Positions 534 through 31,953 of a DNA stretch of 64,000 nt are shown here, one piece after another (the stretch's first letter is position 1; the number at the start of each line of letters is the position of its first letter). The stretch comes from Gammaproteobacteria bacterium. GTDB lineage: Bacteria; Pseudomonadota; Gammaproteobacteria; Steroidobacterales; JABDLF01. A model generated the notes under the pieces. It ran no database searches and was not told the origin of the DNA. It worked only from the letters and a program-made list of their open reading frames with translations. The translations under genes were made by a program, and so were the position numbers. The stretch spans positions 30,340 to 94,339 of the forward strand of contig JBFGOQ010000001.1 in assembly GCA_041565075.1 (NCBI GenBank). The letters run 5' to 3'.

Positions 534-2471
534 TCAGCGTCTCCGATGCGTGTATTCGGCCAGGGATGCGCCCTGGCGCAAGGTCTCCAGCTCGGGCCTG
601 CCTGCTATGAAATCGTCCGGATACCAGGCGAGGTGCCGAATCCCGAGACTTTGCAGCCGCCGCATTTGTGCCCTCAACATTGCCGCGTCCAGCGGCGTGT
701 CGTCACGCCAGTCGACGCTCTGTAGTTCGAAGATCACCTTGGCCGCGCCCTGCGGTGTGGCGATGACTTGCCTGGCGAGTTGCTCCAGGAATTGGTCTGC
801 ATCATTGCGATTCTCGAGAAAAGGCATCGCCATCAGGGCCACGTAGTCGTAGTTTTCCAGCGCATCCGCAAAAGACTGCGCCAGCCACAGCTCACTCTCG
901 GGCCTTAGTACGGTATCCGCAAAAAGATTTCTCGCCGTCTTCAATTCGGGCTTAAACCGTCGTACATGAGCCGCCAGCGTGACGGTGAAATCGGTAAGCG
1001 TTTGCTGCTTGTGCCGGGCCCAGGCTTGTGACGCAATCGGGTCATTGGGGAGCTCAGCGAATTGCGCCGCGGGCCCCAACACCGTAACCAGCGCCTGCCT
1101 GCCTGCAGCACTCGCGTCTTCGTACTCGTTCATTCGCGCATCGTCGTGAAACAGCAGGCCGTCAAAAGCCGTGAAGACCGCGAGGTCTTCATAGATTTCT
1201 GTGATCAGGCGTCGGTTGTCAGGGTCGAACGGCGAAAGCCGGCTTTCACCCTTGGGATCGGGGCGGGTACCGGAGAGCAAGGCTTCCTGTACCAGACGGT
1301 TGGCCTCGACACCCGGCTTTTCGAACGCCAAAACCGGCATCCAGGCAAACACGCCGACTTCGGCCCGGGTTTTCAGTTGCCAGGCCACGCGGCTGAATAA
1401 GTCGGCTCGTACCGGCATGTGGCGATTTGGAAAGTAAAGCGCCTCGGCAGCGCCGTCCGCGTCAGGGTCGGCAAACGCCTGTAAAAACACATGGCTGATT
1501 TGTAGCGCCCGAATCCGGTCGAGCAGGACGCTGAGGTTTTCTTCCTGCTGCACAGGATCGTCATCAAACACGTAGTCGAGATCCACGTGAGCGGCGCGCA
1601 CGATCTCGGGCCGGGCAGGCTGCGAGAGCACAACGGCGAGTTCGCTCGCGACGGGATTCGCTTGCACCAGGTAACGTGGAATCGTGCGAATTCTCGCCGC
1701 ACTTGCGAGACCCGTATCCAGAGTAAGGTTCACATCCAGGCCAAGACGCTCAGCGATTTCCAGCGATGCTGAGTTGTACTTGCCATACGGCCAGGTCATT
1801 GCAGCCGGCCGCGCAGACAGTTCACGCTCCATGACCGCCACGCTCCGCGCCAGGTCACGATGCAAGCGCTGCCGGTATTCCGACGCATTCTCGTAACGAC
1901 CGTCCAGGTGCAGGCGGGAAATGGCAGCCGGTAATTCATTGCCCTGGGGATTGGCGGCCACGCCCTTGTGCATATCGTGGCTGTGGGAGGCGAACTCGGC
2001 CAGCCCGGAGGCGGCCATTTCGCGAACTTCGTGCCATTGCAGGAAGTCTTCGCGGGTTTTGCGTTCGCGACCATAAGGAATGTCGGCACCGGCCGGCGCT
2101 TCCATCCAGCTGGTGACCAGGCTGAACACTGCCGGGAATCGAAAGGCACGCAACAGGGGGTAGACTCGAGTGTAGTGGCTGCGATAGCCGTCATCGAAAG
2201 TCAGCAGAATGGCTTTTGCAGGCAGTGCCGGACCGCCGGCGCTAGCGGCGCGGATCTGAGCGATGCTCACGGGTGTGTAGCCATGATCCCGCAACCAGCG
2301 GAAATGGGCAGCGAGATTTGCTGTCGAAATGGCGTATTGGTCGGGATCGTAGTCTGCGACAACCGCGTCGCGCACGTCATGGTAGGAGACGGCGGCAAAC
2401 TGTTGCGCGGCATAAGCGGGTGACAGGCCCGTCACGCACAATGCTGCGGCGAGGATGAGATGACGGCGCAT
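534..2471 (-). CDS. pgaB: PNAG N-deacetylase / export lipoprotein PgaB
   Basis: The 645-aa ORF has the signal peptide MRRHLILAAALCVTGLSPAYAA. A polysaccharide-deacetylase region (LTFDDGYRSHYT) is followed by a large C-terminal glycoside-hydrolase-like domain. Size and gene order (A-B-C) match the E. coli pga operon. The start shares one nucleotide with the pgaA stop (TGATG). Confidence 0.9.
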   Translation of the reverse strand: MRRHLILAAALCVTGLSPAYAAQQFAAVSYHDVRDAVVADYDPDQYAISTANLAAHFRWLRDHGYTPVSIAQIRAASAGGPALPAKAILLTFDDGYRSHYTRVYPLLRAFRFPAVFSLVTSWMEAPAGADIPYGRERKTREDFLQWHEVREMAASGLAEFASHSHDMHKGVAANPQGNELPAAISRLHLDGRYENASEYRQRLHRDLARSVAVMERELSARPAAMTWPYGKYNSASLEIAERLGLDVNLTLDTGLASAARIRTIPRYLVQANPVASELAVVLSQPARPEIVRAAHVDLDYVFDDDPVQQEENLSVLLDRIRALQISHVFLQAFADPDADGAAEALYFPNRHMPVRADLFSRVAWQLKTRAEVGVFAWMPVLAFEKPGVEANRLVQEALLSGTRPDPKGESRLSPFDPDNRRLITEIYEDLAVFTAFDGLLFHDDARMNEYEDASAAGRQALVTVLGPAAQFAELPNDPIASQAWARHKQQTLTDFTVTLAAHVRRFKPELKTARNLFADTVLRPESELWLAQSFADALENYDYVALMAMPFLENRNDADQFLEQLARQVIATPQGAAKVIFELQSVDWRDDTPLDAAMLRAQMRRLQSLGIRHLAWYPDDFIAGRPELETLRQGASLAEYTHRRR

Positions 2472-5008
2472 CAGAAACGCCCCCTCAGGCCGCCAGTGAA
2501 AAACGTGCCATATTCGAAGGTGCCGTCATACAAAGCGCGGACACGCCTCAAGCCATAATGAAATTGCAGCGCTTCCGATAATTGCAGAATATGCTGATAT
2601 TCGATGCTGCCCACGTTGCCGCCGGCGAAACCACTTTGCGTGTAGCGTCCCGCGTTAAACAGCAGTCGGTGCTCGAAGCTGCGCTCATAGCGCCGATAAA
2701 GTCGCCAGCGGCTGTCGATGCCGAGACTTATTGACCGATCCGAGGACGGGCTGAAGTAGCCGACATCGCTCCGGTCATTTGCAGATGCGAACAGGTTGCC
2801 GGTCAGATCAATTTTCCACGCCGGCCGGTTGAGAATCCGCCTGCTTGCGTCGAGCAACCACGCGGTGCGGAAGTTGCCATCGGAAAAATCCATGGCTTCG
2901 CCAGAGAGTCCGACTCTCAGCGTTTCGTTGCGTCGATAGCGGGCACTCATTCGCAGCCGATCGGCATCTGTGCCCTGGCGATAGGCGCGCAGGGGCAGGG
3001 CATGCGATGCCGATTCGATGAGTCCGTCGAAACGCCACCGGTCATTAACTTCCCAGCCATAACCCGCAGACAGCCCGGTCCTGGCGTCGCCCTCGAGGCT
3101 GCTTACAATTGTCGCGTAGGCGCTGTGGCCGGGTTGCCGATATGCAATGCCCAAACCAGCACGGCGCCGCCTGGCAACACCTTCGCTGAATTCGGCTCGG
3201 GCATCGTGCAGTTGGGCGAAAGGTCGCCACCGGTAACCCGTGCCGCCGAGATAAACACGAGCATCGGATTGGTGTTGCCGGCTGCCGAATTGCTCGCCCG
3301 AACTTTCACCGCCATCGGCGTCGATGACAATCTCGTTGCGATGATAGAGTTCATGACGCCTTGCCAGGCGTCTGACGCCCGGATGGTCGGCGTAGTCCGC
3401 CTGCAAGCCGGCAAATCGGCGCTCAAATTCCTGCCCGCGGTGCAGGTCGAGGAGCGCATTGGCGAGGCCAACCTGTGCACTGAGTAACTCGGGCTCGACC
3501 GCGTCGACCTGGCGATATTCGAAAAGGGACTGACGTGGCCAGCCGCGCCATCGGTACACGTTAGCGAGTTCCTGGCGTATGTCGGTGTTATGTGGCGCTT
3601 CCAACAGCATGTCACTGAGCGTGGCTTCGGCGGCCTCCAGCTGATCGGCGTAGGCGTAACTCAGTGCGAGGGCGATTTCGGCTTTCAATCGACGCGGGTT
3701 ATGCTTGATGACCCGCGATCCTGGCACGCTCCGCCAAATTGCCTGCGATGCTACGAGTGCCTCGGAAACCGAGCGCGCGGCAGCATGGTTTTCGAGTTCC
3801 ACCAGCGCATAAAACCGCTCAAGGTTTAAATCGAAATCTTCCCCGGCAGTGGCCAGTGCGAGGTCATAGAGTCGCCGTGCTTCTTCTGGTTCGCGCAAGG
3901 CGAGCCGCGAGCCCGCGACCGAGCGCAGTACATATACCGGGAGCGATTCATCCGGCAGACCGAGTTCATGATAGACAGCGACGACATCTTCGTGACGGGC
4001 ACGAGCGCGCAGGGCGACAATCCGGTCGAATTGGGTTACCTGCCAAAGCGGTGAGTCTGCGGGGAAGCGCGCCAGGTTAGCGTCGAGCAGTCGCAGCGCC
4101 TCGTCAAGGTCCCGGAAGCGTTCATTGCCCTGTGCTCGTGAACGCTCGCCCCAGCGAACCCAAAGTGCGGCGCGATCTGCATACAGCGTGTCAAGCTCGG
4201 CTTCGTCGGCGAGCCCGGGATACCTGGCGGCAAGTGCCAATGCCTGTTGCGGCAACAGCATTGCCTGCAAGGTATGCAATTTCCCGCGCAAGGCTTCCCG
4301 GTTGTGCGCCTCACGATCCAATATCCGGTCATAAGCTGTCAGCGCCTCAGGGTGATTGCCCGAGCTGCGCAACAAGTAAGCATTGATCAGCCCGCCACGC
4401 ACGGAATTCCTGAATGTGTCGTTCAAAGATTCAAATGCAGCGCGCGCCTCAACCGGCCGACCCGCGTCGGCATAGGTCAGCGCGAGACCGGCCAGGGCAT
4501 CCATCGCATGCGGATCCTGTGTCAACGTCAATTGATACCAGTTGACGGCGGCGTCGAAGTCGCCGACACCACGAGCAGAGCGTGCGACTGCTTGCAGCAC
4601 GTAGGCGGGTGCGGTTTGGGTTTGCAGCTGCGGGGCGAGTGCCAGTACTCGCCGGTATGATCCTTGCCAGGAAAGGACACTGAGAAGATCGTGCAACGCC
4701 GCTTGCCCGCCGCTTGCCGATGCGTTGATGGCTTCCAGAATGCGTACTGCAGAATCGACGCGTTCGGCGCGAGCGAGGCTGACGGCGTGCGTGCGACGCT
4801 GATCACCGGTCAGGCCAAGCAAGTTGCGGCCGACCTCAATGCGTGTGCTCAGAGTGAGCTTGGGCTCTGGCGATAGTATTTCGGCGCCGGCCGAACAGGC
4901 GAGCGCCCCCATCATGAGCAGGGTCAGCGCCCGTCCGATTCCTTGTCCTGCCAGGTGACGCATATCTCGCCAATTTCCGGGATTGCCGCGCGGCAATGCT
5001 AGTGACAT
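2471..5008 (-). CDS. pgaA: PNAG outer-membrane export porin PgaA (TPR domain plus beta-barrel). The probable true start is Met16 at 4963.
   Basis: The ORF is 845 aa. Its N-terminal half is helical and TPR-like. Its C-terminal half has beta-barrel-like alternation and ends ...FFTGGLRGRF. From MRHLAGQGIGRALTLLMMGALACSAGA the sequence reads as a signal peptide. It is the first gene of the pgaABC order. Confidence 0.85.
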   Translation of the reverse strand: MSLALPRGNPGNWRDMRHLAGQGIGRALTLLMMGALACSAGAEILSPEPKLTLSTRIEVGRNLLGLTGDQRRTHAVSLARAERVDSAVRILEAINASASGGQAALHDLLSVLSWQGSYRRVLALAPQLQTQTAPAYVLQAVARSARGVGDFDAAVNWYQLTLTQDPHAMDALAGLALTYADAGRPVEARAAFESLNDTFRNSVRGGLINAYLLRSSGNHPEALTAYDRILDREAHNREALRGKLHTLQAMLLPQQALALAARYPGLADEAELDTLYADRAALWVRWGERSRAQGNERFRDLDEALRLLDANLARFPADSPLWQVTQFDRIVALRARARHEDVVAVYHELGLPDESLPVYVLRSVAGSRLALREPEEARRLYDLALATAGEDFDLNLERFYALVELENHAAARSVSEALVASQAIWRSVPGSRVIKHNPRRLKAEIALALSYAYADQLEAAEATLSDMLLEAPHNTDIRQELANVYRWRGWPRQSLFEYRQVDAVEPELLSAQVGLANALLDLHRGQEFERRFAGLQADYADHPGVRRLARRHELYHRNEIVIDADGGESSGEQFGSRQHQSDARVYLGGTGYRWRPFAQLHDARAEFSEGVARRRRAGLGIAYRQPGHSAYATIVSSLEGDARTGLSAGYGWEVNDRWRFDGLIESASHALPLRAYRQGTDADRLRMSARYRRNETLRVGLSGEAMDFSDGNFRTAWLLDASRRILNRPAWKIDLTGNLFASANDRSDVGYFSPSSDRSISLGIDSRWRLYRRYERSFEHRLLFNAGRYTQSGFAGGNVGSIEYQHILQLSEALQFHYGLRRVRALYDGTFEYGTFFTGGLRGRF

Positions 5009-5073: not shown

Positions 5074-5089
5074 TGTGACGGGCGTCACG
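5074..5089. promoter_or_regulatory. CRP-family operator-like palindrome TGTGA-CGGGCG-TCACG upstream of pgaA
   Basis: The sequence gtTTGTGACGGGCGTCACGtt was read directly at 5072..5091. The arms GTGACG/CGTCAC are a perfect inverted repeat. The site lies 66-118 bp upstream of the two candidate pgaA starts. A TAAAAT -10-like hexamer (minus strand) lies at 5023..5018. Confidence 0.5.
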
Positions 5090-12339: not shown

Positions 12340-14532
12340 CTAAATTGCCTCGAGGTTCGCCCTGGTATCCGGCCCTTTCTTGCCTGGCTTGAAATCCAGG
12401 TGCAGCGGCAACTCCCGCGCATTCATTTCAGGTCCGAGGAACTGACCCTGAAGATAGCGGCAACCATTGTCCTTGAGCCACTGGGCCTGGACATCGCTGG
12501 TAACCCCGACAGCACAAACTTCGAGGTTGAGTGAATTGGCCATGTCAATTACTGCCTTGACGAATTGCCGCAGTCTCTCGTCGGTGCTGACATTTCTGAT
12601 AAACCGTGGATTCAACTTGATGCCACGGGCGGGTACACGCTGCAGATTGAGCAAAGATGCAGATCCGGAGCCGAACTGGTCGATCCAGATTTCGAATCCG
12701 GCCTCGTTCCATTTGCGCAATATGCTGACGCTTTCACCCGAAGCCGAAATGATCCGGTCTTCACTGGCTTCGATGCGGATATCACGCGGGCCGAGCTCCC
12801 ATTGCGCTAACAATCCGGTGACCAGATCGGGCAGATCTTCACGCAACAATTGTCGCGACGAAATATTGATGGACACGAACAGGCCGTCGAGACCCTGATC
12901 TCTCCATTTGGCCAGATCTGCGCATACCCGTGCCAGGGCCCAGCGGCCCAGCCGCTCGATCTCACCCGATTTCTCGGCGACTTCAATAAATTCTGCGGCT
13001 TTTATAAGCCCGCGCTTGGGATGATGCCATCGGACCAGGGCTTCTGCCCCAATCGTTCTGCCGCTGCCGGCAGCAACTATTGGCTGGTAATGGACCGTAA
13101 GGCCTTCGCTGTCCAGCGCACGACGAAGGTCGTTGATCATAAACAATTTGTCTCGAGTTTCTTCGAACATGAAATCTTCGTAGAAGTGAAACGCGTGCTT
13201 GCCGCGACGTTTAGCGTGATACATCGCGACATCTGAATGTGCCAGCAGAGTCTCAGCGTCCCGCCCGTCTTCAGGAAAGGTGGCAATGCCAATGCTGGCG
13301 CCGATATAAACTTCGTGCCCGTTAACATTAAACGGCTCACGCAGTGTCTTCAGCACCGCAGCCGCCACGATGCCAGCCTGTTGCCGGTCCTGCAGGTTTT
13401 CCAGGATCACGGTGAATTCATCGCCGCCCAGTCGCGCCACGGAGTATTTCCCCTGGTGGCCAACACGCCACGTCGATGCAGGCTCACTGTCCAGGCAGTC
13501 GATGAGGCGTTGTGCCGTGCTGATCAGCAGTGCGTCGCCGGCATCGTGCCCCAGGGTGTCGTTAACGGGCTTGAAATCGTCGAGATCGATGAACAGGACC
13601 GCGCCCCCGACCTTGCCCGTCCGACAGTTAATGCAAAGTTGTGCCAGCGAATCCAGCAAGCTCGCGCGGTTGGGCAAGCCGGTCAGAGGATCATGATAGG
13701 CGAGAAACTCAATTTCTTTCTGACTGGACTCGAGGTCCTGGCTCATGCCCCGGAAGGCCAATGCAAGATCACCGATTTCGTCGTTCCTGCCGACCACGAC
13801 ATGGTGATCAAAGTCGCCCTTGCCCAGTTGTCTTGCCTGCCTGGCCAGGTCGCGAATCGGACTCGCCAGCTTGCGGCCTGTGACCAGGGCGAGCAGGGCG
13901 CCGGCCAGCACGAAGACCAGGGTGAAAATGCCGGCATAAGTCAGTTCCTTGCGCAGCCGTTGGCCGGTCAGCGCACTGAGGTTGTTTCGCAGGCCTGCCG
14001 ATTCGGCGGCAACTACATCCAACGAGAGCCCGACCGCAACCCCTCCCAGATGTTCGTCGCCAAGCTTGACGGGTCTGACAATGTGGAGGATTTCCCCGTC
14101 GCGAACCAGGTGCAATTCGCGGGTGGCGCCTGCATCCCAGCCCAGCAGTTCGTCAAGCTGCTGACCGTAAGACGCGATCGCGGGACTGCCGTCATGGACG
14201 ATTGCACCTTGCGCGTCGTAGACGTAGGCGAACACCACGTCGCGCTGCGCCACTGTCGTCGAGAGATACTCCAGCATTCTTTGCAGATTCAGGGCGAATA
14301 AGGGGTTAGTGAGATTTTGCACCAGGTATTGCGTCATGATCCGGCCCCGCTCTCTGACCTGTTCCTCGAGATGCGCCTCGATGGCCTCGCTGGTGACGTT
14401 TTGGACTTCCCCTGCAGCAGACTTGAACTGCCAGACTGACAGCAGAGAAAGACCGATCATGCTGACGAGTATGACGAGCAGAATTTGCACGAAATAGCGT
14501 GTTTGCAAGTTGATGCGAATGCGCTTGTTCAC
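12340..14532 (-). CDS. Membrane sensor HAMP-GGDEF-EAL protein (canonical GGDEF, degenerate EAL)
   Basis: The ORF is 730 aa. An N-terminal TM helix, a periplasmic region and a second TM helix are followed by HAMP (PIRDLARQARQLGKGDFDHHV...IGDLALAFRGM). The GGDEF domain reads ...ARLGGDEFTVIL. The EAL domain has EALVRW, but DQFGSGS replaces DDFGTG, KLN replaces KID, and AVGVTS replaces AEGVET. Confidence 0.9.
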   Translation of the reverse strand: MNKRIRINLQTRYFVQILLVILVSMIGLSLLSVWQFKSAAGEVQNVTSEAIEAHLEEQVRERGRIMTQYLVQNLTNPLFALNLQRMLEYLSTTVAQRDVVFAYVYDAQGAIVHDGSPAIASYGQQLDELLGWDAGATRELHLVRDGEILHIVRPVKLGDEHLGGVAVGLSLDVVAAESAGLRNNLSALTGQRLRKELTYAGIFTLVFVLAGALLALVTGRKLASPIRDLARQARQLGKGDFDHHVVVGRNDEIGDLALAFRGMSQDLESSQKEIEFLAYHDPLTGLPNRASLLDSLAQLCINCRTGKVGGAVLFIDLDDFKPVNDTLGHDAGDALLISTAQRLIDCLDSEPASTWRVGHQGKYSVARLGGDEFTVILENLQDRQQAGIVAAAVLKTLREPFNVNGHEVYIGASIGIATFPEDGRDAETLLAHSDVAMYHAKRRGKHAFHFYEDFMFEETRDKLFMINDLRRALDSEGLTVHYQPIVAAGSGRTIGAEALVRWHHPKRGLIKAAEFIEVAEKSGEIERLGRWALARVCADLAKWRDQGLDGLFVSINISSRQLLREDLPDLVTGLLAQWELGPRDIRIEASEDRIISASGESVSILRKWNEAGFEIWIDQFGSGSASLLNLQRVPARGIKLNPRFIRNVSTDERLRQFVKAVIDMANSLNLEVCAVGVTSDVQAQWLKDNGCRYLQGQFLGPEMNARELPLHLDFKPGKKGPDTRANLEAI

Positions 14533-15482
14533 GGTGCCCCCGGCATTTCGGCCGGCGCTGCGCTAACGGCATCCCGTATGTTGCGCAGAGCGATTCGGGA
14601 TTCGCGGTCCAACTCGTCGAACCTGGTAGTCATCTGGTAGGCCAGAAGCGCGTCACGTGCTTTCGGATCATCGTGCGCCGCGAGCAAAATCTCTTTGATT
14701 GCGGTTTTGACACGGTGATTTAAGCTGGCCCGCACGAGCTCGACTGCCCTTGGGATTGGTGGGCTCGTATACACAATCTTCATGTCATTACGCGCGTTTT
14801 CCGGGATCAGGTCTTTCTGTTCCCAGTCGAGATCGCTGAGGACACCCGCATTTATCAGGCCCTTGTGCACCCACATGGCGGTGTTGTATTCGGCATTTGA
14901 AAATATATAGCTGACGGAGTCGGATGTGGGTCTTTCCCGTACCGATCTCATGGGTCTGAGCGCCAGGCCTTCTGCCAGCATCGCCGCACGGGGCACAAAG
15001 AAGCCGGTTGTCGAGCCCGGGTGCTGAAAGGCAATGCTGCCGCCTTGCAGGTCGCGCAGGCTGTCGATACCGCTGTCCTTGCGAACAAAAATCACACTTT
15101 TATAGACAGGTACGCCATGCTTCCATTTGCGCAGCAGAATTTCGGCGTCGGCATGCTTTTCCAGCATGGCTGCCGAGTAGGCGGTTTCGGTAACCCAGTC
15201 AACCCGGCCGTCACGCAGGAATCGAATCATCTGTTCGTGACTTTCGGCAATCTGAATATCCACGTTTTGCACACCTAGAGGTGCCAGCATGGTGGTCATG
15301 TATTCGGCCAGCGGCTTCATGGCACTGATGTGTCGTTGCGGGTCGTCGCTGATGGCTGCCATGACCACGAGCCGTGGAATCTGTTCAGCATCGCGCGCCC
15401 AGGTCGCCTGGCACGCACACAGCGCGGCCAGGAAAATCAGTAAGGCTTTACTGCAGGCTATATTGCGCCGGCGGTTGAACAT
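14529..15482 (-). CDS. Periplasmic PhnD-like (phosphonate-bd family) substrate-binding protein
   Basis: The likely start is MFNRRRNIACSKALLIFLAALCACQA (15482). The core reads VYKSVIFVRKDSGIDSLRDLQGGSIAFQHPGSTTGFFVPRAAML, which is typical of the PhnD-type binding fold. The stop overlaps the downstream GGDEF-EAL start (ATGA at 14532..14529). Confidence 0.65.
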   Translation of the reverse strand: MFNRRRNIACSKALLIFLAALCACQATWARDAEQIPRLVVMAAISDDPQRHISAMKPLAEYMTTMLAPLGVQNVDIQIAESHEQMIRFLRDGRVDWVTETAYSAAMLEKHADAEILLRKWKHGVPVYKSVIFVRKDSGIDSLRDLQGGSIAFQHPGSTTGFFVPRAAMLAEGLALRPMRSVRERPTSDSVSYIFSNAEYNTAMWVHKGLINAGVLSDLDWEQKDLIPENARNDMKIVYTSPPIPRAVELVRASLNHRVKTAIKEILLAAHDDPKARDALLAYQMTTRFDELDRESRIALRNIRDAVSAAPAEMPGAP

Positions 15483-15576
15483 CGGGTCTTCCCAAGCAGG
15501 CAAAGTCAGCACGCAGGCAACATCAGCGCCGCGCGTGACAGGTGAATGAATTATGACAAATAGGAACTTGCGTTCG

Positions 15577-15594
15577 ATGTGATGCCTATCACAT
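15577..15594. promoter_or_regulatory. Perfect CRP-type box ATGTGAT-GCCT-ATCACAT
   Basis: Read directly: cgATGTGATGCCTATCACATtaaaa. It equals TGTGA-N6-TCACA with 7-bp perfect arms. It lies in the divergent region between the binding-protein operon (start 15482) and small gene A. On the minus strand a CATAAT hexamer (15555..15550) lies 22 nt after the core, which is a class-II-like geometry. Confidence 0.65.
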
Positions 15595-15673
15595 TAAAAA
15601 GGACTGCAACAATCGTTGACGCAGGAAATGAACGGGCGAGGCGGCGAAAACGGCGGGTTTTGCGGGGCGGAAC

Positions 15674-15687
15674 CCAGTTCACAGATT
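15674..15687 (+). promoter_or_regulatory. CCAGTTCACAGATT motif, copy 1 (contains a TCACA half-site 21 nt upstream of the TAGATT -10-like hexamer at 15705..15710)
   Basis: An identical 14-mer recurs at 18536..18549, upstream of the paralogous small gene. Confidence 0.4.
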
Positions 15688-15718
15688 GTTGGATGCAATT
15701 TCGCTAGATTGTCGCGCC

Positions 15719-15916
15719 ATGGCAATTTCCTACTACACGAGTTTTCTCGTTGAAGACCCTGATTGCGATGATTTTCGGCACATTAGCGGTGTCCTTGATC
15801 TGCAGCAGCCGCCAGCGCGATCTTTATGCGATGCTGATCTGCGTGCGATCCTTGCGCAAGGCCTTAACGTCGGCAGCGAGAATATACAACTGGTGTGCTG
15901 GTCGGCGCTGCATTAA
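15719..15916 (+). CDS. Small protein of unknown family, paralogue A (65 aa)
   Basis: MAISYYTSFLVEDPDCDDFRHISGVLDLQQPPARSLCDADLRAILAQGLNVGSENIQLVCWSALH. It aligns without gaps over all 65 residues with the product of 18673..18870 (20 identities plus many conservative pairs). Synonymous differences in the shared TSFLV block argue for protein-level selection. The track ORF begins at TTG 15686, so the start is uncertain. Confidence 0.6.
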   Translation: MAISYYTSFLVEDPDCDDFRHISGVLDLQQPPARSLCDADLRAILAQGLNVGSENIQLVCWSALH

Positions 15917-18361
15917 TCAGTTTTTCTTGATATCGACGATCTTGTTGCCAGCCAGACGTCGACCCGATTTTCGCAGCAGCTCGGTGAATTCCTCGGCCGG
16001 AACAGGCTTGCTGAACAGGTATCCCTGCATAACGTGACAGCTGCGCTTGGCCAGAAATTCTGCCTGCTCCTTTGTTTCGACACCTTCGGCGATCACTGAT
16101 TTCTTAAGACTGTGTGCCATACCAATAATGGCCTCGGTAATCGCCCGATCATCCGGGTCGGTGGTAATGTCATTGACAAAAGAGCGGTCGATTTTTATCA
16201 CGTCAATGGGCAGCCGCTTCAGGTAGCTGAGAGATGAATATCCGGTGCCGAAATCATCGACGGAAATTCCAATGCCCATGGATTTCAATTCGCCCAGCGT
16301 GCGCGTCGTCTCGACGGCATTTCTCATAATGATGCCCTCGGTCAGTTCCAGCTCCAGCAAGCGGGCATTCAGACCGGACTTTATCAGCGCTTGCGCGATC
16401 ATGAGCACCAGATTGGACTGTCGAAATTGTCGCCCTGATAGGTTTACGGCGACCTTGAGATCCTTGAAACCCTTGGTGTGCCAAAGTTGCGCTTGTTTGC
16501 AGGCTGTATTGAGCACCCAATCGCCGATCTTGTGGATAAGCCCCGTTTCCTCTGCCAGCGGGATAAATTCCATCGGCGACACCATCCCACGGTCCGGGTG
16601 CCGCCAGCGCAGTAATGCTTCGCAACCGACAATGGTGTTGCTGCGGCCATCGAATTGCGGTTGATAGTATAGTTCGAGCTGCTCGTGGTCCACGGCGCGC
16701 CTGAGATCGTTTTCCAGGGACAGGCGGTCGACAGTCAGCGCATTCATGTTTTCGTTATAAAACTGGTAAGTGTTTCTGCCGGCGTCTTTTGCGTGATACA
16801 TGGCTGTATCGGCGTTTTTCAGCAAGCTCTGGGTGTCGGTCCCGTGTTGTGGGAATTGCGCAACGCCGACGCTGGCACTGATCGTGACTTCGTGATCGCC
16901 GAGCGTAATTGGCTGCGCCAATTCTTCCAGCACCTGGCTGGCAAAATTCCGGATATCGTTGAGGTCCACCAGGCCAGTCATGGCGAGCGCGAACTCATCG
17001 GCTCCGACGCGCGCCACGAAGCCGCGCGGTACCACGCTGGCGAACGGGTCGTTTGTCGCTGGCTTGTCGAGACGTCGCGACAAGCGTTCCGCCACGATAC
17101 ACAGAAGATCATCACCGGCGATATGCCCGAGTGTGTCATTGATTCGCTTGAAGCGATCCAGATCGAGATAAAGTATCGTTAATTTTCGACTGTCCTGGCG
17201 TGCGGCCTCGAGTTCGTGCTCGAGCCGGTCGTAGAAGTTCAGCCGGTTTGGCAGACGCGTCAGGTCGTCGTTAAAAGCCAGAAACTTCACACGCTCTTCC
17301 GCCATACGGCGCTCGGTTACGTCGCACATAACCAAGATCGATGCCAGGTTGGTATCGTGGCGGTCGTGCATGCGCGAGGCCGAGAGGCTTAGTATTTTTT
17401 GCGCTCCTTCCTGGTCGTCGTAGGGAATCTCGAGGTTACGAACCAGTCTGCCGCTGTCGAGCTCATCGAGAACATCCTGCAGGTGCATGCTGGCCAGGTG
17501 CTTGTCGGCAGGCGTGCCTACCAGGTCTGACTCACTGAGTCCGAGAAGTTCGCTGGCAGCGGGATTGACCAGGCAGATGCGAGCGTTCTCATCGAGCACC
17601 AATAGTGCATCGCTCATGGTTTCGATGATTTTGCGGCTGGCTACTGCCGGCGTAATATCAATGAGATGGTAATGCCAGGTTATCAACGCCATGATGCAGA
17701 AAAACACGAACAGCATGGTAAAGCCGAAGGGGTAGACTGGCATGCCAAAAGTTGCGAGTACGTCAACGACGCTCAAGCTGGCAATTGCCACACCGATCAG
17801 CAACAGTCGGATACGTCGTCGGGTAATACTGCCTCTTTCCGCTACCTTATAGGCTTGCCACAAAAGGTAGAGACTGCTGCCAAGCATGACCGATACAAAT
17901 GTCACGAACAACAGGCCTGCCGGCCCGTAGCGGGGATAAAAACCCCAGTAGTGGCGGTATATCCCGCTGGTGTGCAGGTCGGAAAACAAAACCAGCAGGA
18001 AGAAAGCTGACGAGACGGCTGCTGCCGCATAGACCGCCAACTGAAGTTGTTCCAGCCTGTTTACCAGGCGCACCGCAAAAAAGAACGCGCAAGCCGGGAG
18101 AAACGCAATTGCAAGTTGCCCGAAGCGCGCCCAGAACTCTGCCACCTCAACGATCTGTGACAGGTACATCATGGTGGCGCCACACATCCACAGAAACAGA
18201 CACAGGGTAACCAGTCCAAAGGGCAAGGCGACCCGGGAACCGCGTTCGCGGCTCAAGGTAATGATGCCAATCAGTGCGCCGGTAATGGCTGTCGCCAGCG
18301 TGGCGAGCGCATGCGGATTGAAGGCATAGGCTTCGGGCTTGAATATCAGTGATGCGAGCAT
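15917..18361 (-). CDS. Polytopic-membrane PAS-GGDEF-EAL protein (degenerate GADEF, canonical EAL; predicted c-di-GMP phosphodiesterase)
   Basis: The ORF is 814 aa. About 230 aa of hydrophobic multi-pass N-terminal domain are followed by a PAS-like segment. The GGDEF domain has ARVGADEFALAM and no RxxD. The EAL domain has the full motif set: EALLRW, NLS, ELELTE, DDFGTGYSSL, KIDRSF, AEGVET and QGY. Confidence 0.9.
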   Translation of the reverse strand: MLASLIFKPEAYAFNPHALATLATAITGALIGIITLSRERGSRVALPFGLVTLCLFLWMCGATMMYLSQIVEVAEFWARFGQLAIAFLPACAFFFAVRLVNRLEQLQLAVYAAAAVSSAFFLLVLFSDLHTSGIYRHYWGFYPRYGPAGLLFVTFVSVMLGSSLYLLWQAYKVAERGSITRRRIRLLLIGVAIASLSVVDVLATFGMPVYPFGFTMLFVFFCIMALITWHYHLIDITPAVASRKIIETMSDALLVLDENARICLVNPAASELLGLSESDLVGTPADKHLASMHLQDVLDELDSGRLVRNLEIPYDDQEGAQKILSLSASRMHDRHDTNLASILVMCDVTERRMAEERVKFLAFNDDLTRLPNRLNFYDRLEHELEAARQDSRKLTILYLDLDRFKRINDTLGHIAGDDLLCIVAERLSRRLDKPATNDPFASVVPRGFVARVGADEFALAMTGLVDLNDIRNFASQVLEELAQPITLGDHEVTISASVGVAQFPQHGTDTQSLLKNADTAMYHAKDAGRNTYQFYNENMNALTVDRLSLENDLRRAVDHEQLELYYQPQFDGRSNTIVGCEALLRWRHPDRGMVSPMEFIPLAEETGLIHKIGDWVLNTACKQAQLWHTKGFKDLKVAVNLSGRQFRQSNLVLMIAQALIKSGLNARLLELELTEGIIMRNAVETTRTLGELKSMGIGISVDDFGTGYSSLSYLKRLPIDVIKIDRSFVNDITTDPDDRAITEAIIGMAHSLKKSVIAEGVETKEQAEFLAKRSCHVMQGYLFSKPVPAEEFTELLRKSGRRLAGNKIVDIKKN

Positions 18362-18535
18362 GGTTTCATTTCAAGACAAACAGATGTTGCAGAATACTTA
18401 TCGGGATATCGCCTGGCTGTTAGCCTTGATTAATAGAAGTCAGCAAATTAAATGTCTGTACATCATGCCTTACAAAGTGCGTATGACCCATCGGGAGAAC
18501 CCTGAATTAAACGCCATTAGCGGCATCTGTTGGTA

Positions 18536-18549
18536 CCAGTTCACAGATT
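18536..18549 (+). promoter_or_regulatory. CCAGTTCACAGATT motif, copy 2
   Basis: This is an exact repeat of the 14-mer at 15674..15687. It lies 124 nt upstream of the ATG of small gene B. Confidence 0.35.
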
Positions 18550-18622
18550 TTTCGCATTTAGTGTGACCTGCGTCTGAGTTTTGTTGACCGGCCAGTACCG
18601 CCGGTTGCGACACGAACATGTT

Positions 18623-18638
18623 TGTGACTCCAGTCACG
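18623..18638. promoter_or_regulatory. CRP-type box TGTGA-CTCCAG-TCACG upstream of small gene B
   Basis: Read directly: atgTTTGTGACTCCAGTCACGGc. It shares TTTGTGAC....GTCACG with the pgaA site. A TATGGT -10-like hexamer at 18659..18664 lies 20 nt downstream, and the ATG is at 18673. Confidence 0.5.
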
Positions 18639-18672
18639 GCAATTCATGAGCGTCACGGTATGGTGGTGTGCC

Positions 18673-18870
18673 ATGGGCGCAAAATTTCACACCAGTTTTC
18701 TAGTTCAGGACATCGGCTCCAGCCTGTGTCGCGAGGTAAACGCGGTCGTCGAAGTCAGCCGTCTGCCCGGCGCCATGCTCGAGCAGGAGGACATCGAGCA
18801 GATTCTGACGGACAGCCTTGAAATCGAGGCCGCGGAGTTGCGACTCATTCACTGGTCACGCCTGCACTGA
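18673..18870 (+). CDS. Small protein of unknown family, paralogue B (65 aa)
   Basis: MGAKFHTSFLVQDIGSSLCREVNAVVEVSRLPGAMLEQEDIEQILTDSLEIEAAELRLIHWSRLH. It is a gapless paralogue of the product of 15719..15916. The track ORF starts at ATG 18646, so the start is uncertain. Confidence 0.6.
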   Translation: MGAKFHTSFLVQDIGSSLCREVNAVVEVSRLPGAMLEQEDIEQILTDSLEIEAAELRLIHWSRLH

Positions 18871-21093: not shown

Positions 21094-21765
21094 ATGCGCA
21101 GTCCGCCCGTCGAACGCACGGACATTCCGGCGCTCAAGAGCTTCGTGGAATACTGCCGCGTGAGGCATGCGCCGTCGCGCAGCATGATTATCCATGCTGG
21201 CGACGTCTCCGACAGCCTGTTCTACGTCCTTGAAGGATCCGTCGAGGTCATGATCGAGGATGAGGACGGCAAGGAAATCGTGCTCGCCTATCTGAACCCC
21301 GGGCACTTTTTCGGTGAGATGGGGTTTTTTGCCGGACAAACCGAACGCACGGCCTGGGTTCGCGCCCGCACAGACTGCCGGGTTGCGGAAATGACCTACG
21401 TGCGTTTTCGCCAGTTCGCGGATGAAAATCCCGAACTGGTTATGGAGCTGGCTGTGCAGCTCGCCACCCGTCTTAGCCGCACCAATCGCAAAATCGGGGA
21501 TCTGGCATTTCTCGATGTTACCGGTCGCGTGGCCCATGCTCTGATGAACCTCGCCGATGAACCTGATGCTGTGTCGGTGCCGGGCGGTATGGCGGTGTCC
21601 GTTACGCGTTCGCAGCTTGCCCGACTGGTAGGATGCACCAGAGAAATGGTGGGTCGGGTGCTCAAGATCCTGGTCGATCAGAATCTCATTGAAGACCAGG
21701 GCCGCGTCCTGGTGGTCTTGCGCCGGCCCGAGCCGGCGTCTGAGGAAGTCGAACAGGCCGGTTAA
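21094..21765 (+). CDS. crp: CRP/Vfr/Clp-family global transcription regulator
   Basis: The 223-aa ORF is collinear with E. coli CRP. The cNMP pocket reads GEMGFF...ERTAWVRARTDCRVAEMTY. The HTH region reads DLAFLDVTGRVAHAL...VTRSQLARLVGCTREMVGRVLKIL and keeps the R-E...R recognition residues that read TGTGA. Confidence 0.9.
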   Translation: MRSPPVERTDIPALKSFVEYCRVRHAPSRSMIIHAGDVSDSLFYVLEGSVEVMIEDEDGKEIVLAYLNPGHFFGEMGFFAGQTERTAWVRARTDCRVAEMTYVRFRQFADENPELVMELAVQLATRLSRTNRKIGDLAFLDVTGRVAHALMNLADEPDAVSVPGGMAVSVTRSQLARLVGCTREMVGRVLKILVDQNLIEDQGRVLVVLRRPEPASEEVEQAG

Positions 21766-30250: not shown

Positions 30251-30372
30251 GCCAAAGCCTCCGGCCGGCTGGTTTTGGATTGTAACCGTATTTATGCCGC
30301 CCAAGGCTCGTACCGGTGGGGCTTTGGGTTTACACTGTCGGCATACGCCCCGGGGGCAAGAGCGGAGTAGCT

Positions 30373-31953
30373 GTGTCCGAGCTGGAGGATACCGGCATTT
30401 ATGTGGCGGTAGGGGCTGGTGAAGCCGAATCGATCCCGATGGCTCCCACCTCAATTACCGCATTCGTCGGTCGCGCCCGTCGCGGCCCGGTCAACTTTCC
30501 CCTGACCATCGACAGTTTCGACGAATTCGAGCGCCTTTTCGGCAGTCTGTGGATGCCGAGTACGATGAGCTATGCAGTGCGCCATTTCTTTCTGAACGGT
30601 GGCCGCCAGGCAATCATCGTGCGGGTCATCAATGGCGGCCGGCATAACACCATCCAACTGCCGGCCGGCCACGACGTACTTGTGCTCGCTGCCCGGCACC
30701 CGGGCACCGGGGAGGTGCTGCGCGCCGCAGTCGACTACGACAACATCCCGGAAAAATCCAACAGCTTTAATCTTACGATTCAACGGGTGCGCGGCGTCGG
30801 TTCCACGATTGTGGAAGACCAGGAGATTGTCAATCGTGTTTCCATGCGTGCTGAGTCGCAACGCTTCGTCACTGATGTGCTGCATGACTCCAACCTGGTC
30901 CGCGTGCGTGATGGGGTGCCGACAGCGCGGCCGGAGCCCACCGCCAATTCCGGCCATGGCGAGCAGCGTGGCTACGTGACGTCGGCCAGCGATGGTGATG
31001 ATGGCCGTCCTCTTTCCGACAATGACATTATTGGTTCGGAGCGCGAGCAAACCGGGCTGCATGCTCTGAAGACGGGGCCACGCTTCAATCTCCTGTGCAT
31101 TCCGCCGCTGTCACGAAACCATGACCTGGGATTCGCGGCCATGCGCTTCGCGGCCGAATTCTGCCGCCGCAACAAGGCCCTGTATGTGGCTGATCCGCCG
31201 TCGATCTGGCGCTCGCCGGATGACGCCATAGCCGGTTTGAGCGATCTGGGTCTCAGCAATGAGAACGCGGCACTGTTCTACCCACGGCTTATCATGGACG
31301 ACGAGGCCCAGGGTGGCCGCTCGGAGTTTGCCCCCTGTGGCACGGTTGCGGGCCTGCTGGCGCGCTGCGACGAAAATGCCGGGCCCTGGGAAAGCCCTGG
31401 CTTGAGCCATGCACCGCTGCGTGGCGTGCGTAGATTTGCGGATGAAGTCGATGACTACGAATGCGAGAGCCTGATAGCGAGCGGGATCAATTGCCTGCGC
31501 GCCCATGGGCGCAGCATCCGGGTGCTGGAGGGCGATCGCACCCTGGGCGGTGCCGATTGCCCGGCGCCGGAATGGCGCAGTCTTTCTAAGCGGCGTTTTG
31601 CAATGATGGTCATCGACAGCGTGCGGGAAGGCACCGGATGGGCAGCATTTGAAAAGAACGATTCCGAATTGTGGTACCGGCTGCAGGGCAAGGTCGAAGA
31701 ATTTCTCATGCGCTGCCATGCACTGGGTGCCTTTGGCAACCTCAAACAAAGCCAGGCATGGTTTGTGAAGTGTGACCGCGAGACCACCACCGAGGAGGAC
31801 CGCCGCAAAGGTCGTGTCAACGTGGTGGTGGGTCTGGCGCAAGATCGGCCGTCGGATTTTCTGGTGATTAATATCAGTCAGCCGGTGCAGCCATTGACAG
31901 ACGAGGATGCGTTCGCCGAAGCCAGCCTGGCCAGTTATGATGCGCTCGCCTGA
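30373..31953 (+). CDS. Contractile-tail sheath family protein (phage / eCIS sheath homologue), orphan
   Basis: The N-terminus reads TGIYVAVGAGEAESIPMAPTSITAFVGRARRGPVNFPLTIDSFDEFERLFG. The mid-region reads FNLLCIP...ALYVADPP...AALFYPRL. The C-terminus reads GINCLRAHGRSIRVLEGDRTLGG...WRSLSKRRFAMMVIDSVREGTGWAAFEKNDSELWYRLQGKVEEFL...AWFVKCDRETTTEED..GRVNVVVGLAQDRPSDFLVINISQ. Together these are the canonical sheath signature blocks. A GTG start at 30373 follows GGAG (30364..30367). Confidence 0.8.
   Translation: MSELEDTGIYVAVGAGEAESIPMAPTSITAFVGRARRGPVNFPLTIDSFDEFERLFGSLWMPSTMSYAVRHFFLNGGRQAIIVRVINGGRHNTIQLPAGHDVLVLAARHPGTGEVLRAAVDYDNIPEKSNSFNLTIQRVRGVGSTIVEDQEIVNRVSMRAESQRFVTDVLHDSNLVRVRDGVPTARPEPTANSGHGEQRGYVTSASDGDDGRPLSDNDIIGSEREQTGLHALKTGPRFNLLCIPPLSRNHDLGFAAMRFAAEFCRRNKALYVADPPSIWRSPDDAIAGLSDLGLSNENAALFYPRLIMDDEAQGGRSEFAPCGTVAGLLARCDENAGPWESPGLSHAPLRGVRRFADEVDDYECESLIASGINCLRAHGRSIRVLEGDRTLGGADCPAPEWRSLSKRRFAMMVIDSVREGTGWAAFEKNDSELWYRLQGKVEEFLMRCHALGAFGNLKQSQAWFVKCDRETTTEEDRRKGRVNVVVGLAQDRPSDFLVINISQPVQPLTDEDAFAEASLASYDALA

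Follow-up and report, generated by a model that had tools for sequence, protein, structure and literature searches.

In the 64-kb stretch of DNA analysed here (hereafter the window), a short palindrome lies between a predicted signalling operon, which encodes a PhnD-like periplasmic binding protein and a membrane GGDEF-EAL protein, and a divergently oriented gene for a protein of 65 residues. The position of this candidate CRP site raises the question of which regulator would bind it, which of the flanking transcription units it would serve and whether it would activate or repress.

The palindromic box and its conservation

The box, ATGTGATGCCTATCACAT, occupies positions 15577-15594 and is built of two 7-bp arms around a 4-bp centre; its core, TGTGA-N6-TCACA, spans 15578-15593 and is centred at 15585.5, and no strand is assigned to it. 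An earlier note on this DNA had described it as a perfect TGTGA-N6-TCACA with 7-bp arms and as the best site in the window. The sequence bears out the first description, and the second holds in that the core is the sole exact match in the 64 kb, the next-best sites, at 5074-5089 and 18623-18638, each having one mismatch. In dinucleotide-preserving shuffles of the window (n = 100), the exact core occurred 0.02 times per window on average, with one or more matches in 2 of the 100 shuffles. Two-mismatch cores are not in excess in the window (15, against 20 by chance), and the 18-mer with its 7-bp arms has no second match there, even when two mismatches are allowed. The chance level of approximately 0.02, obtained from one window, becomes decisive because the box is kept in nine diverged orthologous loci.

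These nine independent loci comprise the window itself together with L003, L004, L006, L007, L085, L086, L088 and L089, and the lineages that they represent share 53–60% identity between their binding proteins and 57–68% between their GGDEF-EAL proteins. The relatives of the binding protein derive from metagenomes or MAGs of unclassified Gammaproteobacteria, one of them at 99% identity and all others at no more than 60%. A further 80 loci from GTDB genomes were included in the comparison; these were found by an alignment-based contig scan, a query with the single binding protein having given no matches.

Each of the nine orthologous loci contains the box with at most one mismatch, located 101–158 nt upstream of the annotated start and conforming to the consensus TGTGAt-N4-(a/g)TCaCa. 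When the nine loci are aligned on this anchor, conservation is confined to TGTGAt...caTCaCa and (at)TTGTCATAAT, of which TTGTCATAAT is invariant throughout. The spacing between TCACA and the CATAAT hexamer is 22 nt in eight lineages and 21 nt in L006, with the sequence of the spacer free to vary. An unbiased MAFFT alignment of approximately 200 nt upstream of the nine operons yields 18 invariant columns, all of which fall into two blocks, namely the TGTGA and the T, C and C of the second half-site in one and TTGTCATAAT in the other. The conservation of box and -10 element at a fixed spacing therefore argues that the two form a functional unit under selection. We consider the palindrome to be an evolutionarily conserved, predicted CRP binding site for the two-gene operon.

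The same conservation bears on whether the palindrome arose by chance or acts as an RNA or DNA hairpin, for example as the remains of a terminator belonging to the GGDEF-EAL gene upstream. A 7-bp stem can form, yet it is the sequence that is conserved and not mere pairing, since the half-sites TGTGAC and GTCGCA of L007 break the pairing but keep the CRP-critical bases. Its hairpin energy is also no better than that of shuffled sequences, 41 of 200 of which fold equally well (z = -0.79); the palindrome has no T-run, no terminator was called, and Rfam returned no match for the box and leader region at E ≤ 1. A chance or hairpin origin thus has next to no probability, and the conservation in nine lineages together with the folding controls effectively refutes it.

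Among the 77 more distant loci (L008–L084, for example L008 from Woeseiaceae, L009 from Chromatiales, L036 from Rehaibacterium and L041 from Pseudoxanthomonas), none carries a box in the 600 bp upstream when up to one mismatch is allowed, and more than 50 of these box-less loci, from Woeseiaceae, Chromatiales and Lysobacterales, retain the two-gene operon. Since the operon is widespread and the box is found in one clade only, CRP control would represent a clade-specific rewiring. Upstream of the operon, L008 and L009 share a different block, GCAA.TGCGTGATTTGCGTCTCA ... AATTTGGCATA.TTTCAAGT.CTTAT, which suggests that another regulator acts at these loci.

Architecture of the operon promoter and the nearby CRP

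On the minus strand, the box is followed by a candidate promoter in the order TGTGATAGGCATCACA, 22 nt and CATAAT. The 22 nt given by the earlier note are correct when counted from the TCACA core, and become 21 nt when counted from the end of the 18-mer. The hexamer, which runs from 15555 to 15550 and agrees with the -10 hexamer at five of six positions, is preceded by TTTGT, such that the TG at 15558-15557 generates an extended -10 of the form TGnCATAAT within the element TTTGTCATAAT (15550-15560, minus strand). From the position of the hexamer, transcription of the operon is predicted to start at 15543-15544 on the minus strand, 6–7 nt downstream of the -10 element, which would place the centre of the box at -41.5 or -42.5 and leave a 5' UTR of about 60 nt before the ATG of the binding-protein gene at 15482, just upstream of which lies GGAAGA. 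If the start is taken 7 nt past the -10, the centre is offset by one bp, at -42.5 compared with the canonical -41.5.

No TTGACA-like hexamer is found at the -35 position, 17 nt upstream of the -10, where the window has ATCGAA (two of six matches to TTGACA) and the orthologous loci show no conservation. A generic scan of 15300-16000 for -35/-10 promoters and terminators reported no site, a result that says nothing about class II promoters, since the scan requires a match at -35. In class II promoters, of which galP1 is the standard example, CRP binds a site that lies at about -41.5 and overlaps the -35 region (PMC4693257). The class-II-like activation geometry that had been proposed for the binding-protein/GGDEF-EAL operon is supported by the retention of box, -10 element and spacing in nine lineages, and as judged from these elements the operon promoter is of the class II CRP-dependent, textbook type, here in an uncultured bacterial group.

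The predicted promoter shares with galP1 a site of the TGTGA-N6-TCACA type overlapping the -35 region at about -41.5 (PMC4693257), the want of a usable -35 element, an extended -10 located 21–22 nt after TCACA, and a cognate CRP with surfaces of the AR1 and AR2 type. The two are nevertheless distinct. The box in the window is a perfect palindrome, whereas the gal box is asymmetric, and the spacing is 22 nt and not 21 nt in eight of the nine lineages. In addition, the promoter in the window has neither an overlapping P2 nor a GalR-type operator, and it belongs to an uncultured gammaproteobacterial clade, the organism being known only from metagenomes.

The presumed binder of the box is encoded within the window, as the earlier note had anticipated. 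The gene at 21094-21765 on the plus strand, 5.5 kb from the box, encodes a CRP orthologue of 223 residues that exceeds the cut-off of the NCBIfam CRP equivalog NF008732 (275.1 bits compared with 266) and contains the Pfam domains cNMP_binding, HTH_Crp_2 and Crp. The protein aligns end to end with the structures of E. coli CRP (1i5z/1g6n) at an E-value of 1e-70, and matches Vfr at 1e-64 and Xanthomonas Clp at 1e-45. Within the recognition helix, Arg180, Glu181 and Arg185 (E. coli numbering) are retained in the sequence TREMVGR, and of the residues that contact cAMP, Gly71, Glu72, Arg82, Arg123 and Thr127 are unchanged, with Ser83 replaced by Thr and Ser128 by Asn. Positions 19, 21, 96 and 101 of AR2 are occupied by Arg, Arg, Glu and Arg, respectively, which preserves the charges of this surface, and AR1 carries the substitutions T158S and H159V. 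Position 52, next to AR3, has Glu instead of Lys, which, on established knowledge, should unmask AR3; the residue roles and the definitions of the activating regions follow PMC4693257. The AR2 charges, the recognition helix and Glu52 therefore indicate that this CRP is equipped for class II activation. No adenylate cyclase gene was found within the 64-kb window.

The G of TGTGA separates CRP-type sites from FNR-type TTGAT boxes. This distinction matters for the possibility that the box is bound by another member of the CRP/FNR family encoded elsewhere, such as a c-di-GMP-responsive, Clp-like protein or an FNR-like paralogue. Paralogues of this family are common and only 64 kb of the genome is in view; moreover, proteins of the Clp type recognise similar sites and the locus is rich in c-di-GMP genes. 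Set against this, TGTGA is invariant at each of its five positions throughout the nine lineages, which marks the site as CRP-type and not FNR-type, the CRP in the window lies nearer to E. coli CRP (1e-70) than to Clp (1e-45) and has an intact R-E-x-x-x-R helix, and the loci from Lysobacterales, a lineage that uses Clp, are without the box. We regard binding by such a regulator as highly improbable.

We consider it very probable that the 18-bp palindrome serves as the operator for a sigma-70 promoter of class II that depends on cAMP-CRP and directs leftward transcription on the minus strand; binding, the dependence on cAMP, the position at which transcription starts and the direction of the regulatory effect are what we infer from this architecture. 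In the proposed mechanism, the CRP encoded at 21094-21765, as a dimer loaded with cAMP, would bind TGTGAT-N4-ATCACA some 41.5–42.5 bp upstream of the start, where it would take the place of the missing -35 element and both recruit and activate RNA polymerase held by the extended -10 TGTCATAAT, as occurs at E. coli galP1. The resulting transcript would span both coupled genes, those of the PhnD-like binding protein and the HAMP-GGDEF-EAL protein, such that high cAMP, signalling carbon limitation, would lead to more of a ligand-gated c-di-GMP signalling module.

The same elements could also be arranged for repression, with CRP blocking or trapping RNA polymerase at the -35 region of a promoter that is otherwise constitutive. 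A -35 element can be dispensable where the -10 is extended, and here the hexamer agrees at five of six positions and the TG is invariant, so that the promoter might have a basal activity independent of CRP; at gal, furthermore, one CRP site represses P2 while it activates P1 (PMC4693257). Against repression, nine lineages maintain exactly the distance between box and -10 that class II activation uses, the CRP in the window preserves the charges of the AR2 type and carries Glu at position 52, and the nine-locus alignment contains no second, overlapping conserved block that resembles a -10. Repression thus appears distinctly unlikely.

Small gene A, gene B and the 65-residue protein family

On the other side of the box lies small gene A (15719-15916, plus strand), which is divergent from the operon and encodes 65 residues. 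The earlier note had placed it about 130 bp from the box, in agreement with an ATG at 15719 that is 124 nt past the end of the box and 133.5 nt from its centre. Gene A was at first suspected to be a spurious ORF, since it has no Shine-Dalgarno sequence, abuts a convergent gene and is uncalled in L001 and L089. This reading was rejected: orthologues of exactly 65 residues, with 52–71% identity and changes of the synonymous type, occur in six lineages, in each of which they point away from the operon, and the window itself contains a paralogue, gene B (18673-18870), which aligns with gene A free of gaps at 31% identity (E 6e-13). The copies that the gene finder left uncalled are at 3570-3764 in L001 and at 2282-2476 in L089, and gene A is also present at 2567-2761 in L006 and at 2501-2695 in L007, two loci without gene calls. 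The lack of a Shine-Dalgarno sequence probably causes a systematic under-annotation of the gene.

Gene A is preceded by a promoter-like block of its own (15668-15710, plus strand) that has the form (G)TTCACA-21 nt-TAnATT-GTCGCGCC-ATG in six lineages. In the window, the block begins with a weak CRP-like 16-mer, CGGAACCCAGTTCACA at 15668-15683, of which 15679-15683 form a TCACA half-site, followed after 21 nt by TAGATT at 15705-15710 and after a further 8 nt by the ATG. Over the six lineages the -10-like hexamer reads TA(G/C/A)ATT. With the hexamer only 8 nt from the ATG, there is no room for a Shine-Dalgarno sequence, and the gene A mRNA would therefore be leaderless or nearly so.

These features bear on whether the box is an operator shared by two divergent promoters, which also, or even mainly, controls gene A. 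The box does sit between divergent genes, gene A is real and kept beside the operon in six lineages, and CRP-like sites typically precede members of the gene A family. However, 133.5 nt separate the box centre from the gene A ATG, and a proximal TCACA half-site at class II distance belongs to gene A itself. The spacing tells the same story, in that the distance from the perfect box to the gene A block varies (90, 95 and twice 99 bp, with values above 107 bp in L085 and L007) and shows no conservation of helical phase, in contrast to the fixed spacing between the box and CATAAT. Furthermore, gene A is missing from L003, L004 and L086, all of which retain the box and the -10 element. The variable distance and the loss of gene A in three lineages that have the box make a divergent role unlikely or secondary, and we rate the shared-operator reading as improbable; the perfect box is predicted to serve mainly the operon promoter.

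Gene B (plus strand) is itself preceded by one of the two one-mismatch sites of the window, TGTGACTCCAGTCACG at 18623-18638, which is centred 42.5 nt from the ATG and followed by 20 nt, the hexamer TATGGT and 8 nt to the ATG (18659-18675). The block TTGCCGTGACTG.GTCACA upstream of gene B is invariant in L004 and L086, and the region resembles another class II CRP promoter, one that would give rise to a leaderless mRNA.

The family to which the two proteins belong comprises 141 representative clusters at E ≤ 1e-3, and no model in Pfam or NCBIfam matches it. An AlphaFold model of the 65-residue protein has a beta-beta-alpha-beta arrangement (pLDDT 84), for which a fold search of the PDB returned nothing significant, the best hit being a generic ribosomal-protein-like fold at an E-value of 0.07. 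Outside the gene A group, nine of ten members have a CRP-like 16-mer with one or two mismatches (scored as the best 16-mer within 150 nt of the ATG) that is centred 42.5 or 43.5 nt before the ATG, and that is followed by 20–22 nt, a hexamer, TAnnnT-like in most, and about 8 nt. The positive members include Steroidobacter denitrificans and three MAG lineages, and the exception, L097, has a GGAGG Shine-Dalgarno sequence in place of the CRP-like site. Members of the family are located at L090:3501, L091:3564, L093:3501, L093:3811 and L094:3001, and a linkage to ppnN-DUF192-crp recurs in some of them; the two of L093 lie beside these genes, as does gene B in the window. The occurrence of CRP-like sites at class II distance before 65-residue genes, in distant genomes as well, argues that the motif is in use in the clade. 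On a speculative and rather doubtful reading, the 65-residue proteins, almost always predicted to be expressed as leaderless mRNAs from class II CRP promoters, could represent unrecognised effectors of the CRP regulon, and their genes may have been duplicated in the lineage and recruited beside GGDEF-EAL genes as partners or modulators.

Several other features of the window deserve mention. An 814-residue 7TM-PAS-GGDEF-EAL protein is encoded at 15917-18361 (minus strand), upstream of the operon and on the same strand. Comparison of three sequences (the window, L004 and L086) shows, in the region upstream of this gene at 18500-18570 (minus strand), ATCACA, 16 nt and TGTGA(A/T)CTGGT(A/T)CC(A/G)A, a CRP-like half-site, and then TTTCAGGGTT.TCCC.AT and CATGATG; these blocks may represent a promoter or a leader for the 814-residue gene. 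The second one-mismatch site of the window, CGTGACGCCCGTCACA at 5074-5089 (minus strand), precedes pgaA (2471-5008, minus strand) by 66 nt, and pgaB is located beside that gene at 534-2471 on the same strand. Class II geometry was rejected for this site, where TCACA and a TAGAGT hexamer are only 15 nt apart. The rest of the window has the appearance of ordinary chromosome, with pgaAB, ppnN, rho, purDH, accC, dsbD, groEL and glnE. An ORF of 545 residues at 30316-31953 (plus strand) has a weak match to Phage_sheath_1 (E 8.7e-08) and is located beside ORFs without Pfam matches, a region that may be a contractile-sheath element of the tailocin or T6SS-like kind.

The signalling operon and its place among known systems

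The first gene of the operon (14529-15482, minus strand) encodes the PhnD-like periplasmic substrate-binding protein, 317 residues in length, with a PF12974 domain (Pfam, 3.8e-43). The protein scores 113.6 with TIGR01098, against a cut-off of 112.05, and does not reach the level of a PhnD equivalog in NCBIfam. The second gene (12340-14532, minus strand) encodes a membrane HAMP-GGDEF-EAL protein of 730 residues, as judged from its translation and Pfam matches, and overlaps the first by the 4 nt GTGA at 14529-14532. The pair is adjacent and co-oriented in more than 50 loci, and we take the two genes to be a translationally coupled operon on the strength of this organisation.

Within the 730-residue protein, the GGDEF motif is intact (ARLGGDEF) and the RxxD I-site is absent. 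Alignment to the solved EAL domains of MucR and MorA indicates that the EAL motif is retained, but that DDFGTG has become DQFGSG, KID has become KLN and AEGVE has become AVGVT, such that the glutamate of AEGVE and the second Asp of DDFGTG are missing. AVGVT is found in all six orthologues that were checked and D[NH]FGSG in five of them, the motif not having been retrieved in L089. The protein accordingly does not have the full residue set for catalysis by an active EAL phosphodiesterase, which comprises EAL, N, ExxE, DDFGTG, K and the glutamate of AEGVE. Given the degenerate EAL, synthesis or sensing of c-di-GMP is a more likely function of the operon than breakdown of this messenger, and the 730-residue protein is likely a cyclase with a non-catalytic EAL domain. 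We infer a diguanylate cyclase that would be gated by the binding protein, in which the EAL domain would have a regulatory or c-di-GMP-binding role.

Binding-protein genes that adjoin, and are co-transcribed with, the gene of a GGDEF-EAL receptor have been described for NspS-MbaA of Vibrio cholerae and for ScrB-ScrC (PMC8050422; PMC8967002). The module in the window resembles these systems in combining a binding protein with a two-transmembrane HAMP GGDEF-EAL receptor, presumably gated by periplasmic contact. Unlike theirs, its binding protein is of the PF12974 (PhnD/AioX-like) family and not SBP_bac_8 or SBP_bac_3, and its EAL domain lacks both the glutamate of AEGVE and the second Asp in DDFGTG. 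The binding protein, with its Phosphonate-bd domain, thus falls outside the PotD/SBP_bac_8 polyamine-binding family, and the difference in family makes the module an analogue, but not a member, of the NspS-MbaA/ScrB-ScrC group. AioX is the only characterised signalling protein of the PF12974 family in a review of the field, and its partner is a histidine kinase (PMC8050422).

Control of c-di-GMP enzymes by cAMP-CRP is already known from several bacteria. At lrbR of Shewanella putrefaciens, cAMP-CRP acts on a gene of c-di-GMP turnover and thereby couples biofilm signalling to the nutritional state of the cell; a CRP site could not be identified at lrbR, and CRP works there by helping the activator LrbA (PMC12415220). 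The operon in the window, in contrast, has a consensus site in a stand-alone class II position, and the predicted target is a GGDEF-EAL protein coupled to a binding protein, with a degenerate EAL, and not a phosphodiesterase.

For the organism, these observations predict, with high confidence, a link open to experimental test between cAMP-CRP, and hence nutrient status, and c-di-GMP in an uncultured clade related to Steroidobacter- and Woeseia-like organisms. We also entertain, as a speculative and rather doubtful extension, a clade-specific relay from cAMP to c-di-GMP in which CRP would act directly on three promoters within 4 kb, those of the binding-protein/diguanylate-cyclase operon, small gene A and gene B, with the 65-residue proteins as effectors. 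The E. coli CRP motif and the class II architecture appear to carry over unchanged to this clade, so that its CRP regulon should be predictable from metagenome-assembled genomes. The locus would also offer a clean example of regulatory rewiring, in which a widespread signalling operon has come under CRP control in one clade, and the small-protein family with its predicted CRP-dependent, leaderless-type promoters is possibly the more original lead.
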